From contig CAWDTA010000002.1 in the NCBI GenBank assembly GCA_963805085.1, forward strand, positions 480,001 through 544,000: DNA of 64,000 bases. The letters run 5' to 3'. This stretch comes from an uncultured Veillonellaceae bacterium. GTDB lineage: Bacteria > Bacillota > Negativicutes > JARBTT01. This document shows, piece by piece, positions 58,685-62,448 of this stretch. Position numbers and translations under genes: made by a program. Positions within the stretch are counted from its first letter, which is position 1. Every line of letters begins with the position of its first letter. Below the pieces are notes generated by a model. That model was not told where the DNA came from. It did no database searches and worked only from the letters and a program-made list of their open reading frames with translations.

Positions 58685-58714
58685 TTGACATATAGGGGCT
58701 TGTTATGTTAATAT
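58685..58714 (+). promoter_or_regulatory. sigma70 promoter of the tRNA-like/rSAM unit
   Basis: TTGACA-18 bp-TAATAT with TGn extension. Confidence 0.65.
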
Positions 58715-58727
58715 TTGTATATGACAC

Positions 58728-58815
58728 GGAGAGGTGGTCGAGTTGGCTTAAGACAATTGATTAATTTCAGTGTACGTTTTACGTACCGTAGGTTCAAATC
58801 CTACTCTCTCCGCCA
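58728..58815 (+). tRNA. tRNA-Ser-like RNA with a non-canonical 6-nt anticodon loop (no assignable anticodon)
   Basis: Acceptor GGAGAGG/TCTCTCC, G73, encoded CCA; D arm GTC/GAC with GG; anticodon stem ATTGA/TCAGT, loop TTAATT; long variable arm GTACGT/ACGTAC; T arm GTAGG-TTCAAAT-CCTAC. Confidence 0.85.
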
Positions 58816-58826
58816 ATAAAAAATGT

Positions 58827-58859
58827 AAAACTATTATGTGTGAGCATAGTAGTTTTTTT
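58827..58859 (+). terminator. terminator-like hairpin after the tRNA-like gene
   Basis: AAAACTATTATG/CATAGTAGTTTT plus T-run. Confidence 0.6.
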
Positions 58860-58890
58860 ACAAATATCAAAAAGTTAGGAGAATTTTATT

Positions 58891-59022
58891 ATGTCATTAT
58901 CACAATTAGCAATAATTGAAGATTATCATTCTTTGGAAGTATCTAGAACAACTTATCCTAACTACAAATACTATTGCGTTAAATACAATTTAAGCACTAA
59001 GGATAATATTACATTAATTTAA
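58891..59022 (+). CDS. putative rSAM RiPP precursor (43 aa, Tyr-rich)
   Basis: AGGAGA RBS; MSLSQLAIIEDYHSLEVSRTTYPNYKYYCVKYNLSTKDNITLI; directly upstream of the rSAM gene; not in the ORF track. Confidence 0.6.
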   Translation: MSLSQLAIIEDYHSLEVSRTTYPNYKYYCVKYNLSTKDNITLI

Positions 59023-59085
59023 AACTATGAATGATTATAGTAATATGCATGGCTATTAATAAAAAATAGAAGGGGATATGCTAAC

Positions 59086-60105
59086 ATGAAAAAAAACAAA
59101 TGTAGTAATCTTGAAAAAATTGAATTTCAGCTTACAACTTCGTGCAACATGAAGTGCAAATTTTGTTTTCATGGTGATGAAGTATCTTACCAAAGATTAG
59201 ATACTGATGTAGTATGCAAGTCTATCAAAGAACTCACATTTCAAACAAAATCAGGTTATCCTTATGCAAATCTAAAGTCTGTATGGCTGACTGGTGGAGA
59301 GCCTCTGTTAGAAATGGAGGCCGTTTCAGAAATCATTAAAATAAGCAAATCTATGAATTTAATAACTGTCATAAGCACAAATGGACTCCTTCTTGAAAAA
59401 AATCTTGATCAATTACTGAAATCTGGTTTGGATGAAGTTAAAATTTCATTAGATTCGCTAGATACTAATTTATTTCAAAACCTTAGAGGTGGATCGCTGT
59501 CAACCGTTCTAAATAATATTAAATTAGTAGCAAAGACTCCTATAAAAACACATATTAGAATAACAGTGAACAATGACAATGTTAATAGTATTGGTAACAT
59601 TGTTGAAGAAATGGCAGATGTTGGCCTTGCTACTATTGAACTTAAAGCGGTTCTTCCAATAGGTCGTTCTGATTTTAGATTCATGCCTAATCACAATATA
59701 CTAGAAAAGGCAATAAACGATGCAATAAAAAAAATACCACCAAATAAGGCAACTCCATATGTAACAACGATATGTAATTATCTTGCTCCATGTAAAGGAT
59801 TTTCTGTTAGTCCAAATATCCCTTGCACTTGTAGTCACTCATCACTTTATATAGCTGCTACTGGAGATATCCTTCCCTGTGGGTATTTTCCAAAAGAAAG
59901 TCAATATAATATTTATCGCGATTCTCTTTTAGATGGATGGACAGGTTCCTTTTTTAATACTATAAGAAACAGTGCTCCTGAGAAGTGTACAACATGTAAA
60001 GACTGGGATTTATGTAAGAATGGATGCCCAGCAGTGCTTTATAACCATGGTGACCTTAATAACTCTTGTTTTGAGCTCATTACTGAAAAAATAGCAAAAA
60101 ATTAA
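59086..60105 (+). CDS. radical SAM enzyme with SPASM domain
   Basis: CNMKCKFC, TGGEP, TNG, ISLD; SPASM C...GDILPC...CTTC...CKNGC...C. Confidence 0.92.
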   Translation: MKKNKCSNLEKIEFQLTTSCNMKCKFCFHGDEVSYQRLDTDVVCKSIKELTFQTKSGYPYANLKSVWLTGGEPLLEMEAVSEIIKISKSMNLITVISTNGLLLEKNLDQLLKSGLDEVKISLDSLDTNLFQNLRGGSLSTVLNNIKLVAKTPIKTHIRITVNNDNVNSIGNIVEEMADVGLATIELKAVLPIGRSDFRFMPNHNILEKAINDAIKKIPPNKATPYVTTICNYLAPCKGFSVSPNIPCTCSHSSLYIAATGDILPCGYFPKESQYNIYRDSLLDGWTGSFFNTIRNSAPEKCTTCKDWDLCKNGCPAVLYNHGDLNNSCFELITEKIAKN

Positions 60106-60171
60106 TTATTATTGGTCATTGTCAATAATAATTAATGATAATCTATTTTACATTTTTAGGAGAGTATTTTC

Positions 60172-61344
60172 ATGTTATTGTCCAATAAAAAAAAGATAGT
60201 AATACTTTCAGTCGCACATTTGATTAATGACTGGTATATGAATTTCATTCAGGTTTTAATGCCATTTTTCGTAATGTATGGAATAGGATTAAGTAAGGGC
60301 GCTTTCCTGATAGCTGCATTCACAATTACTTCATCCTTAATGCAGCCGTTGTTTGGTTATTTAGTCGATCATAAAAATCAGCAATGGATGATCTATTTTG
60401 GCACTGCTTGGATGGCGATATTTGTAAGCCTGCTTGGAAGGTTTAATAATTATCCATTATTAGTTATTGTTGCGACTTTATCTGGTGTAGGGACAGCTGC
60501 ATTTCATCCTCAGGCTTCTGCTATAGTTAGCGCATTAAGTAATAATAGAAAGAACTTTTTTCAAGCTTGCTTTATTGCTGCAGGAAATCTTGGTGGAGCA
60601 CTTACTCCAGTAATTGTTATTCCTTTTGTTGAAGTTTATGGTCTAGAGCTGATGCCTGTATTTATATTGCCAGGAGTAGGGATTGCTATTTTACTTTGGT
60701 TATTTTCTGCACCTAAAAAACCAGTGAAAGAGCAGCTTGTTCTTTCATCATTACCGCCAATTCCTCGTAGTTCTTTGGTAGAGCTTAGTAAGTTAGTAAT
60801 AGTTGTATCAATTCGTTCACTGGTTAATTATGGGTTAATTGCTTTTTTGCCATTATATCTTCAATCGATGAATGTTTCTCTTCAAGCCAGTAGCCATCTG
60901 CTTTTTATAATGTTATTTTTCGGGGCTATTGGTGGGATTTTAGGCGGATATTTAGCAGATATCTTTGGAAGAAAATTAATACTTGTAGGTTCATTATTTA
61001 TTTCCAGTCCTCTATTTTACTTTTTCCTTAATAGTGATGGCTTTACAAGTAAAGTATTTTTAGCCTTCGCTGGAACGGCACTTTTAGCATCATATTCTAT
61101 TACGGTAGTGATTGCGCAAGAAATTATTAATACTAGAACATCTCTTGCATCTGGGATAATAGTTGGATTTAGCAATGGAGCCGGTGGACTTGGTGTGGGG
61201 ATTTTAGGACTAATCGCCGAACATATGGGCATTGCATATATTATCAATTTATTAATTTGGATACCTTTAATTATTAGCTTATTTAGTTTGATTATTAATG
61301 ATAAGCAGGATTCTACTCTACGTTTTTCAAATAGTGAGATATAA
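60172..61344 (+). CDS. MFS transporter, Fsr-like
   Basis: AHLINDW, QPLFGYLVD, AAFHPQA, GYLADIFGRK. Confidence 0.88.
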   Translation: MLLSNKKKIVILSVAHLINDWYMNFIQVLMPFFVMYGIGLSKGAFLIAAFTITSSLMQPLFGYLVDHKNQQWMIYFGTAWMAIFVSLLGRFNNYPLLVIVATLSGVGTAAFHPQASAIVSALSNNRKNFFQACFIAAGNLGGALTPVIVIPFVEVYGLELMPVFILPGVGIAILLWLFSAPKKPVKEQLVLSSLPPIPRSSLVELSKLVIVVSIRSLVNYGLIAFLPLYLQSMNVSLQASSHLLFIMLFFGAIGGILGGYLADIFGRKLILVGSLFISSPLFYFFLNSDGFTSKVFLAFAGTALLASYSITVVIAQEIINTRTSLASGIIVGFSNGAGGLGVGILGLIAEHMGIAYIINLLIWIPLIISLFSLIINDKQDSTLRFSNSEI

Positions 61345-61383
61345 TCAGGTAATAAAGAAGTCTGTCGGAGCAGGTGAGATAGA

Positions 61384-62097
61384 ATGAGTAAAAAAGTGGG
61401 AATCATTGGTGGTATGGGACCTTTGGCTACAGTAGATTTATTCGCCAAAATTGTAAATAATACACCAGCTAATATAGATCAAGATCATATTAGGATTATC
61501 ATCGATAACAATCCCCAGATTCCATCCAGGGTAGATGCGATTTTAGAAGGAGCTGAAAGCCCCTTGTCAGCTATGCAAAAATCAGCTAAACTGCTTGAAA
61601 TTGCCGGTGCAAATTTCATTGTCTTAGCATGTAATACTGCACATTACTGGATCAAAGATTTACGGGCATCAATATCTATTCCCGTGTATAGTATTATTGA
61701 AAATGCAGCTATATGTATAGCAACGAATTATCGATGTTATTCCGGACGTATATTGTTGTTGGCTACCGAAGCAACTATTAGCCTTGGATTATATCAGCAA
61801 GCATTTGAAAATAAGGATATGCTGCTACAAATACCTACCCATGAACAACAAGCCATATTCTACAAAGCTATTAGGAGGGTCAAGGCAGGTGAATTATCTA
61901 GCAATTCATATATAAGTAAAGTTAATAGCATATTATCTAGATATGCTGAGGAAGGAACTGTAGCAATTCTGGCAGGGTGTACAGAAATTCCATTATTGTT
62001 CCCATTCTTGACTGATAGGCTAATTAAACTGGATGCGACATTGATTTTAGCACAAATGGTAATTGAACGGTCGACTAATAAAGATTTAGAAGGCTAG
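61384..62097 (+). CDS. Asp/Glu-family PLP-independent amino acid racemase
   Basis: [23 protein letters not shown] (both catalytic Cys present). Confidence 0.92.
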
Positions 62098-62107
62098 AAT
62101 TTTTATC

Positions 62108-62448
62108 ATGAATATTCCTAATGTGCCCCATGACTCAGTGCCTGTTGGTCGAGACGAAAATGACAATGTTGAGGTGCGCCGCTGGGAGACGCCGCGTGAA
62201 TTCGACTTTGAGCCCGCTGGCTCACTGGCAAATTGGCGAGAAACTGGGGATTCTTGGTTTTGAACGGGGCAGTAAGGTGATCGGTGCTCGCTTTACTTTT
62301 TGTCGTGGTTTAGGCTCCAGGCTGGAAAGGTCCTTAATTAATTTTATGTTGGATGTGCATACTGGTGAGCATGGTTATACGGAGTTTTTCCCGCCGTTTA
62401 TCGCTAACCGCGATAGCAGGCCGGGACCAGGGGGGCTTGATCGCCAGA
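62108..62448 (+). pseudogene. serS: seryl-tRNA synthetase pseudogene fragment
   Basis: [31 protein letters not shown], then +1 frameshift to [40 protein letters not shown], then an internal deletion to a decayed AGRDTRGLIRQ motif-2 segment. Confidence 0.85.

Follow-up and report, generated by a model that had tools for sequence, protein, structure and literature searches.

An anticodon-less tRNA-Ser-like RNA in a mobile cassette with a predicted synthetase-like protein

What can a tRNA still do for a bacterium once its anticodon has been lost? The question is raised by a 64,000-nt stretch of the genome of an uncultured Veillonellaceae bacterium (contig CAWDTA010000002.1, positions 480,001 to 544,000), which we call the window. 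An initial annotation, made from the letters alone, had flagged in it a co-oriented block at 58685-62448 that opens with a tRNA-Ser-shaped RNA without anticodon and closes with a decayed gene for seryl-tRNA synthetase (SerRS), serS. We find that the RNA belongs with another set of genes: a horizontally mobile cassette whose recurrent parts are the anticodon-less tRNA-Ser-like RNA, a protein of 296 residues (p296), a hydrolase of the metallo-beta-lactamase (MBL) fold and an amino-acid-type transporter, which may be an EamA protein, a member of the major facilitator superfamily (MFS) or a permease. We lean towards the view that this is a cassette for tRNA-dependent small-molecule chemistry, in which the RNA would be loaded by SerRS and p296 would act on its acceptor end; we hold this view as somewhat better than an even proposition. 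The firm ground of the argument is formed by the parts that make up the cassette, by its being mobile, by the modelled fold of p296 and by the way in which the RNA is conserved. Coordinates beyond the window are given in contig numbering, marked C2 (window 63537 = C2:543,537), and those of the features are collected in Table 1.

The RNA and its recurrence beside p296

The description of the RNA in the initial annotation holds. Copy A is the one tRNA-like gene in the whole window, and ARAGORN calls it 'tRNA-???', with a two-base 'anticodon', because its anticodon loop has 6 nt; a serine anticodon in a 7-nt loop is not found in it. Copy A reaches 41.4 bits against the Rfam tRNA model RF00005 (gathering score 29) and folds as a cloverleaf: the acceptor stem has 7 bp and is accompanied by G73 and by a CCA that the gene encodes, a D arm is present, and the T arm is normal. 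The variable arm is a long hairpin of 5-6 bp, which together with G73 makes up the serine-type identity set, as judged from sequence and alignment. When it was aligned by MAFFT with five tRNA-Ser, one tRNA-Leu and one tRNA-Tyr of the same genome, it appeared by eye to be closest to tRNA-Ser, of which the genome has five ordinary genes (tga, gct twice, cga and gga). Bacterial SerRS reads precisely the long variable arm and G73, and it ignores the anticodon.

A second copy of the RNA, copy B, was detected by searching the whole genome, at a distance of 6.7 kb and in inverted orientation. It is 98% identical to copy A, and the two substitutions between them keep the fold, one being located in the D loop and the other changing an A-U pair to G-U. 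For a wider comparison a covariance model, R1, was built from ten cassette RNAs; it gives 89-90 bits to the two copies (89.4 for copy A), against 55-67 bits for the true tRNA-Ser genes of this genome. R1 was then used on 33 loci that encode p296; 12 of them belong to species genomes and 19 to metagenomes, the other two being the window region and a locus on an E. coli plasmid. In 19 of these 33 loci, which are spread over several phyla, p296 has a tRNA-like RNA no more than about 3.2 kb away; the match is of at least 65 bits in 16 of them and partial or weaker in three more (L025, L038 and L039). The named carriers are Serratia, Edwardsiella, E. coli, Salmonella, a Lentisphaerae metagenome-assembled genome (MAG) and the genome studied here. 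Some loci are redundant and have identical RNAs (L017/26/28/29/30, L018/34, L024/40 and L038/39), and the number of distinct RNA sequences is 14 when a Salmonella plasmid is included. As a control, eight whole genomes, this one among them, were searched with R1, and no other match above 69 bits was obtained; the alphaproteobacterial genomes gave at most 69 bits, which is the range of ordinary tRNA-Ser.

The conservation of these RNAs is uneven. For 11 distinct RNAs, RNAalifold predicts the acceptor, D, variable and T stems; the acceptor stem is identical in all 11, whereas the other three arms contain pairs with compensatory changes, 5 of the 20 predicted. No common stem emerges for the anticodon arm, because this arm differs in every lineage and is always aberrant, with a 6-nt loop here, loops of 4-5 nt elsewhere and stems of 8-12 bp in others; L022 has the one RNA in which ARAGORN still reads an anticodon (tga). 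Moreover, the RNAs share a T stem that the tRNA-Ser genes of their hosts lack, which argues for common descent with the cassette and against local recruitment. Thus, the proposal of the initial annotation that the RNA is dedicated and non-ribosomal gains support from the recurrence of such RNAs beside one protein family in unrelated bacteria.

Several loci show how the RNA varies. On a Salmonella plasmid of 194 kb (L076, 6500-6751, minus strand) two tandem tRNA-like RNAs lie between the MBL gene and p296, one of 95 bits and the other of 69 bits with damaged acceptor stem and T loop. In L025, a plasmid-type contig, the RNA is split inside the T arm into halves (1-120 and 5806-5922, minus strand) about 5.7 kb apart around the contig end, and looks interrupted by a large insertion. 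L038 (2038-2623) and L039 (5001-5586) contain a broken p296 remnant, a 65-residue open reading frame (ORF) that keeps one conserved motif, directly followed by a reduced RNA of 83 nt (39.6 bits) and then by a membrane protein of 320 residues. Finally, the RNA of L040 (156-244, minus strand) is labelled 'tRNA-Lys' in the RefSeq annotation of an E. coli plasmid, so automated annotation mislabels this class of RNA.

p296 and the cassette around it

The intact cassette of this genome runs on the minus strand in the order RNA copy B, p296, EamA transporter and MBL-fold hydrolase, and it ends at window position 62621, where it converges on the serS relic. The initial annotation had seen no obvious tRNA-dependent transferase in its unit; a candidate is the synthetase-like p296, of which the unit has only a stub and whose intact gene lies just beyond the window.

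By sequence, p296 is an orphan. It matches no family in Pfam, NCBIfam or PADLOC, and ten of its distant relatives have no Pfam family either. There are 74 relatives in a set of 5.8 billion proteins, called 'hypothetical' in the source labels, and the family amounts to 61 representative clusters among 1.84 billion. The source labels name alphaproteobacterial and Lentisphaerae MAGs, Veillonella, Fusobacterium, Cetobacterium, E. coli/Shigella, Salmonella, Pectobacterium, Rahnella and Edwardsiella; no p296 was found in phage records. Within the family, a G-H-T near residue 83 and a G-K-S near the C terminus look invariant by eye; H83, C229, C263 and C295 are invariant residues. A search of the ESM Atlas with the homologue P0031 returned its own cluster and a weak lead (0.90), a cluster in which 21% of the members carry PF05141.

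The fold is more telling. The AlphaFold model of p296, built on 21 sequences, has a pLDDT of 91.2 and a pTM of 0.90. Its top Foldseek matches in the PDB are ArgRS, CysRS, MshC and TyrRS, with E-values down to 4e-5, and the best 50 rows of a VIA search, which is independent of Foldseek, are all class I aminoacyl-tRNA synthetases (aaRS) or their paralogues, at Z 7.4-13.8: ArgRS 13.8, MshC 11.9, CysRS 11.5, MetRS 11.3 and GluQRS 9.9, with TyrRS and TrpRS at 7.4-8.8. No cyclodipeptide synthase chain is among these 50 rows. Judged by its modelled fold, p296 has the shape of a class I aaRS catalytic core of the Rossmann type. The matches span residues 72-293 of the 296 of the model; since they reach the point where an anticodon-binding domain would start, p296 appears to have no such domain. 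Longer or fused forms of p296 were not found, which is weak evidence in the same matter.

The partners of p296 recur with it. An MBL-fold hydrolase is near p296 in 10 of 12 genome loci and in 9 of 19 metagenome loci; these proteins form one family, related by sequence to the uncharacterised PDB entries 2p4z, 3h3e and 7dck. Most cassettes also have a transporter, which changes from one to another: it is of the EamA family here and in L015, L021, L032, L033, L036 and L037, an MFS protein in L012, and in enterobacteria a permease of 377 residues that one source labels 'threonine/serine transporter'. The alphaproteobacterial loci L009, L010 and L013 have the order NUDIX, p296, MBL, followed by variable genes, which in L009 are an HD-domain protein, a glycosyltransferase and a radical SAM (rSAM)/SPASM protein unrelated to that of the window, and in L010 a carbamoyltransferase, a methyltransferase and a SerRS.

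The cassette is horizontally mobile. E. coli has p296 solely on plasmids, in 23 places in 21 of 5426 genomes, and the listed records are of 5.8-17 kb. One of these, of 5.8 kb and examined over its whole length, is mobilisable, with relaxase (mbeA), MobC-family and Rop genes, and its cargo is the RNA, p296 and the permease and nothing else. PLSDB has 20 plasmids with p296, from E. coli, Klebsiella, Salmonella and Enterobacter, and in L021 a four-part cassette stands beside a resolvase and a Tn3-type transposase. In the incomplete congener genome G001 the cassette was not found.

The link with serine and SerRS that the initial annotation had drawn is borne out to a limited extent. The pointers to serine are the identity features of the RNA, the label of the enterobacterial transporter and the SerRS genes. 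Genome G789 has two full SerRS, one of which (L010, 10587-11909, plus strand) closes the co-oriented p296 series of L010. Among the housekeeping SerRS of three related genomes identity is 77-80%; the cluster SerRS shares only 36-37% with them. The window adds the relic of a second serS. As only one of the 11 other p296 genomes has two SerRS, the link is occasional and not general.

Composition of the flagged block

The co-oriented block that was flagged at the outset as one ancestral unit of six parts is a chimera. Its first part is a copy, 362 nt long, of the cassette head; joined to this are genes for an rSAM/SPASM protein, an MFS transporter and a racemase, which are unrelated to the cassette, and the remains of a second serS (Table 1).

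Table 1. Positions of the features in the window and in the adjoining part of the contig (C2)
Feature	Position	Strand	Remarks
RayT/IS200-like tyrosine transposase	57728-58513	-	Pfam Y1_Tnp 63.6 bits; NF047646 84.5 vs cut-off 80
Duplicated cassette head	58626-58985	+	inverted copy at C2:545,353-545,714
Best sigma-70-like promoter match	58685-58714	+	TTGACA, 18 nt, TAATAT, TG-extended; 10/12, consensus match only
tRNA-Ser-like RNA, copy A	58728-58815	+	ARAGORN, Rfam tRNA, covariance model R1
AT-rich hairpin then U-run, terminator-like	58824-58862	+	-13.4 kcal/mol, z -4.19, 0/200 shuffles fold as well
43-aa ORF, 5' stub of second p296 gene	58891-59022	+	~32 codons inside 96%-identical head
Radical SAM/SPASM protein	59086-60105	+	Pfam PF04055, PF13186
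MFS transporter	60172-61344	+	PF07690 (MFS_1), 99.3 bits
Asp/Glu-type racemase, CuyB (cysteate racemase)-like	61384-62097	+	PF01177 118.8 bits; NF052483 225.8 vs cut-off 190
serS relic, frameshifted	62105-62432	+	two frames; TIGR00414 31.7 and 60.4 bits vs cut-off 301.65
MBL-fold hydrolase	62621-63463	-	family of PDB 2p4z and 3h3e
EamA-family transporter	63537-64000 in window; full gene C2:543,537-544,454	-	runs off window
p296, intact 296-aa gene	C2:544,557-545,447	-	outside window, beside RNA copy B
tRNA-Ser-like RNA, copy B	C2:545,524-545,611	-	outside window, 1.5 kb past its end

The duplicated head is identical to its inverted copy at 346 of 362 positions and contains a promoter-like site, the tRNA-like RNA, a hairpin with U-run, a ribosome-binding site and the first codons of p296. 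The small peptide gene of the initial annotation is the 5' stub of a second p296 gene; past codon ~32 its homology to p296 is marginal, the observed score being matched by 20 of 300 shuffles. A single promoter for the whole block had also been supposed. The best sigma-70-like site does lie just upstream of the RNA, which agrees with this idea; against it, the scan found 25 such sites where 19.3 are expected by chance, and so does not rise above its shuffles, and the terminator-like hairpin separates the RNA from the ORFs, although a GC-based terminator scan did not flag it.

The individual proteins named in the flagged block were largely recognised correctly. The rSAM enzyme has both the rSAM and the SPASM families. 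The transporter is an MFS protein, and its supposed likeness to Fsr finds no backing, as there are only weak matches to MFS subfamilies of NCBIfam. The Asp/Glu racemase lies above the curated cut-off for the cysteate racemase CuyB, so this is its predicted activity. The serS relic is also real. It is ~330 nt long, spans positions 103-210 of the 418 of the SerRS model (about residues 99-210 of ~417) and has a GC content of about 48% in surroundings of about 33%. Its DNA is only 66% identical to the intact serS of the genome (C2:1,248,923-1,250,170), for which reason we take it as what is left of a second, divergent serS and not as a recent copy.

What does not hold is the coherence of the block. 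With tblastn, the rSAM, MFS and racemase were missing from the 31 other p296 loci, apart from one weak rSAM match, to the unrelated rSAM/SPASM protein of L009. The rSAM family itself is tiny: there are five relatives at E <= 1e-60, one of them labelled Sporomusa by one source, and the next best is at 6e-21. An orthologue (E <= 1e-40) was absent from the one other genome of the order and from 400 other phylum-sampled genomes; in a sample of the class it was present in 3 of 400 other genomes, all of one genus. The comparison of rSAM neighbourhoods, which the initial annotation had itself named as the check able to overturn its idea, goes against it. The orthologues, 61-62% identical, occupy four loci (L046-L049) in three genomes of one genus, and a tblastn search with eleven proteins of the region, covering about 8 kb around each, found the rSAM alone, without serS, MFS or racemase. 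ARAGORN detected no tRNA at any of the four loci, and Rfam and R1 detected no tRNA or tRNA-like RNA at L046, L047 and L049. As regards a possible product, the best NCBIfam match of the rSAM is PapB, at 104 bits against a cut-off of 340, and the protein is far under every cut-off for maturases of ribosomally synthesised and post-translationally modified peptides (RiPPs). Considered as a RiPP cluster, the block would offer the p296 stub as the adjacent 'precursor' and, as maturase, a protein outside the curated families.

One of the rSAM neighbourhoods deserves description for its own sake. In L046, the only one of the four loci that was read gene by gene, the rSAM orthologue (61%) comes directly behind a class II aaRS paralogue of 432 residues (9910-11208, minus strand; PF00587, 35 bits, with a weak match to the HGTP anticodon domain) and not behind a peptide gene, and DUF401 and a solute-binding SBP_bac_5 protein follow. 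This looks like a separate, unexplained pairing.

The arrangement in the window is neither an assembly artefact nor very recent, because contigs of a strain ~5% diverged bridge the same joins. One contig of 3867 nt, from a soil-metagenome run, extends from RNA A through the stub, rSAM and MFS to the racemase, and other contigs of the same strain link MBL-EamA-p296 and p296-RNA B.

The surroundings are those of an island prone to rearrangement. RayT/IS200-like transposase genes and REP-like hairpins are found beside both RNA copies; the transposase that flanks the duplicated head is context and lies outside the cassette. Further on, C2:545,859-553,887 has more RayT/IS200-like copies or fragments with shared hairpin repeats (L008 9859-10323, 12250-13008 and 17471-17887), as well as a transposase-like ORF of 525 residues and two genes of the PixA inclusion-body family (L008 10650-11924); these elements and repeats mark the island. 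On the other side, two large ORFs at 54047-57105 (minus strand; 636 and 382 residues), which by eye resemble the large and small subunits of [NiFe] hydrogenase, form the edge of the core genome, with 40-45% GC, before the AT-rich mobile region begins. Directly after the MBL gene, at 62482-62619 (minus strand), there is an ORF of 45 residues without family; it may be a terminator instead of a gene, since a GC-rich hairpin with a T-run is seen there by eye.

Readings, precedents and meaning

The reading that we favour assigns a role to each part of the cassette. A promoter of its own would drive transcription of the RNA, and its maturation would follow that of tRNAs. The features that SerRS and the enzymes of the tRNA end read are still there (acceptor stem with G73 and CCA, T arm, long variable arm), and SerRS would be expected to serylate the RNA, as this enzyme does not read the anticodon. 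Since these features are kept and the anticodon loop is lost, we propose that the RNA is serylated and yet held out of decoding. p296 would then bind the acceptor end, either passing the seryl group to a small-molecule acceptor, in the manner of the transferases AcmF and SbzA discussed below, or loading the RNA itself, and the hydrolase and the transporter would process and move the product.

Several observations weigh against this reading. A profile of p296 gave no match among PDB sequences, and its comparison by hhalign with a CysRS profile of three sequences gave a probability of 0.1; as no sequence alignment to any aaRS is available, the HIGH and KMSKS motifs cannot be placed. A shared fold of a model does not by itself fix the function of p296. 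Besides, 14 of the 33 p296 loci gave no convincing R1 match, all eight loci of alphaproteobacterial type and several short contigs among them (in L015, an EamA-bearing locus, the R1 match is of 15.5 bits only). A second SerRS occurs in one of the 11 other p296 genomes; nine have one SerRS, and in a small MAG none was found. Furthermore, the flagged arrangement is inherited, being kept in the ~5% diverged strain, and could be functional, and the class II aaRS paralogue ahead of the rSAM orthologue in L046 hints that the rSAM may be connected with aminoacyl chemistry in a way of its own.

The main rival of SerRS loading is that p296 is the synthetase itself, which would charge the anticodon-less RNA with an amino acid or an analogue, not necessarily serine, so that the RNA would be the carrier and SerRS would have no role. 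We consider this rather unlikely, yet it has real attractions: a class I core without anticodon-binding domain parallels an RNA without anticodon, an acceptor stem without any variation among 11 RNAs fits reading by a protein that is inherited along with them, the E. coli plasmids have no cargo beyond RNA, p296 and permease, and 10 of the 11 other p296 genomes have no extra SerRS. It has to face the fact that HIGH and KMSKS are not recognisable at sequence level, that the RNA retains the long variable arm and G73 read by bacterial SerRS, and that two clusters have a serS relic or an extra SerRS. To the idea of the initial annotation, that the co-oriented RNA, peptide, rSAM/SPASM, MFS, racemase and serS are one system with a RiPP-like or SerRS-targeting product, we give little probability. 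The 'peptide' is a gene stub, tblastn did not find the rSAM, MFS and racemase at the 31 other p296 loci, one weak rSAM match excepted, the rSAM orthologues stand without RNA, serS, MFS and racemase, the rSAM scores far under the maturase cut-offs, and the serS relic, with its frameshift and its deviating GC content, covers only about 110 of 417 residues. These facts have to be set against the persistence of the arrangement in a strain about 5% diverged, the class II aaRS paralogue ahead of the rSAM orthologue in another genus, the unrelated rSAM/SPASM in one alphaproteobacterial p296 cluster and the carbamoyltransferase, methyltransferase and second SerRS in another.

A module of defence, addiction or resistance, for example an acceptor-end decoy or a device that detoxifies a serine analogue or a synthetase inhibitor, would explain why the cassette is cargo of small mobilisable plasmids and adjoins a Tn3-type transposase, and why NUDIX, HD, WYL and PIN domain proteins are among its neighbours. 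A hydrolase plus an exporter is a common resistance pattern, and the MBL protein gives PADLOC matches, which are weak (E 1e-4 to 1e-6). We nevertheless regard this reading as improbable, as no PADLOC model matches p296, p296 is in no phage record, and the steady presence of amino-acid-type transporters suits metabolite traffic. Finally, the RNA might be functionless debris, a decayed tRNA-Ser pseudogene or the remnant of an integration site. IS200/RayT-like elements and rearrangements around both copies, the RNA split in two in one plasmid variant and the degraded tandem copy in L076 speak for it. We take it to be very improbable, for the RNAs that accompany one and the same gene across phyla are complete, and not just 3' halves, with invariant acceptor stems, compensatory changes and a T stem missing from the host tRNA-Ser genes, and the two substitutions between copies A and B preserve the fold.

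For the preferred reading, with SerRS loading the RNA and p296 acting on its acceptor end, there are precedents in part. According to the review PMC12945691, AcmF, a truncated AlaRS-like protein, and SbzA, an IleRS-like protein of SB-203208 biosynthesis, take the aminoacyl group of a charged tRNA and attach it to a small molecule, and the ascamycin cluster also has an extra synthetase, AcmD, which supplies charged tRNA or gives self-resistance, and a hydrolase, AcmE, which removes the aminoacyl group. Here p296 would correspond to the transferase, the extra SerRS (or what remains of it) to AcmD and the MBL hydrolase to AcmE, a likeness of gene pattern only. By analogy, AcmF and SbzA are the closest precedents for p296. 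Those systems, as described there, belong to Streptomyces clusters, and their enzymes are recognisable homologues of AlaRS or IleRS that work with the ordinary tRNAs of the cell, whereas the cassette has a dedicated, anticodon-less RNA, a p296 without sequence similarity to aaRS and three to four genes that are mobile. GluQRS (YadB) and MshC resemble p296 in their class I core (Z 9.9 for GluQRS, with the 290-aa chain 4a91, and 11.9 for MshC). Neither is known to have a canonical anticodon-binding domain or role. They are, in contrast, clear sequence homologues of GluRS and CysRS and act on normal tRNA-Asp or on a sugar, while p296 has no such kinship in sequence and comes with an RNA of its own.

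Among RNAs, the staphylococcal cell-wall tRNA-Gly and tmRNA are tRNA-shaped, charged at CCA and act outside normal decoding. The tRNA-Other of B. cereus is mentioned in PMC5389517 as a non-proteinogenic tRNA. All three share with the RNA described here the tRNA shape, the CCA end and a role outside decoding, which for our RNA is predicted. However, tRNA-Gly and tRNA-Other keep an anticodon loop, the tRNA part of tmRNA sits in a much larger RNA, and none of the three is known to be inherited together with a plasmid-borne gene for a minimal synthetase-like protein. The clusters for valanimycin and albomycin reportedly include a second SerRS (VlmL and AbmK), for supply or self-resistance; the likeness is that of a second SerRS in a cluster, which here is limited to one of the 11 other p296 genomes. 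The remaining genes of those two pathways had no homologue in view here, although no search was aimed at them. To our knowledge, the known pathways that divert charged tRNAs to small-molecule chemistry all use ordinary cellular tRNAs. In open-access full texts we came across no account of a tRNA without anticodon that forms a pair with a minimal synthetase-like protein. The finding belongs to the field of tRNA-dependent chemistry outside the ribosome, and we think that there is a fair chance that it represents a new kind of system.

It is possible, and we put it forward tentatively, that the cassette is a self-contained mobile aminoacylation pair outside translation, in which a core without anticodon-binding domain has co-evolved with an anticodon-less tRNA that serves as a dedicated acyl carrier, the RNA equivalent of a carrier protein, for making or disarming a serine-related small molecule. 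It would then be a natural minimal synthetase:tRNA pair, such as has been proposed for early evolution and sought for orthogonal engineering. Because isolates of E. coli, Klebsiella and Salmonella harbour the cassette on small plasmids, its phenotype is directly testable. The protein family and the class of tRNA-like RNA that it establishes are both new, and the family is rare. If our reading is true, it would be a compact, transferable system of recognition by the acceptor arm only, made of its own anticodon-stripped tRNA and a synthetase-shaped protein stripped of the anticodon-binding domain. It would thus bear on the natural limit to which tRNA identity can be reduced and on the recruitment of the aaRS fold to new chemistry, and it may provide a ready-made orthogonal pair of RNA and enzyme.

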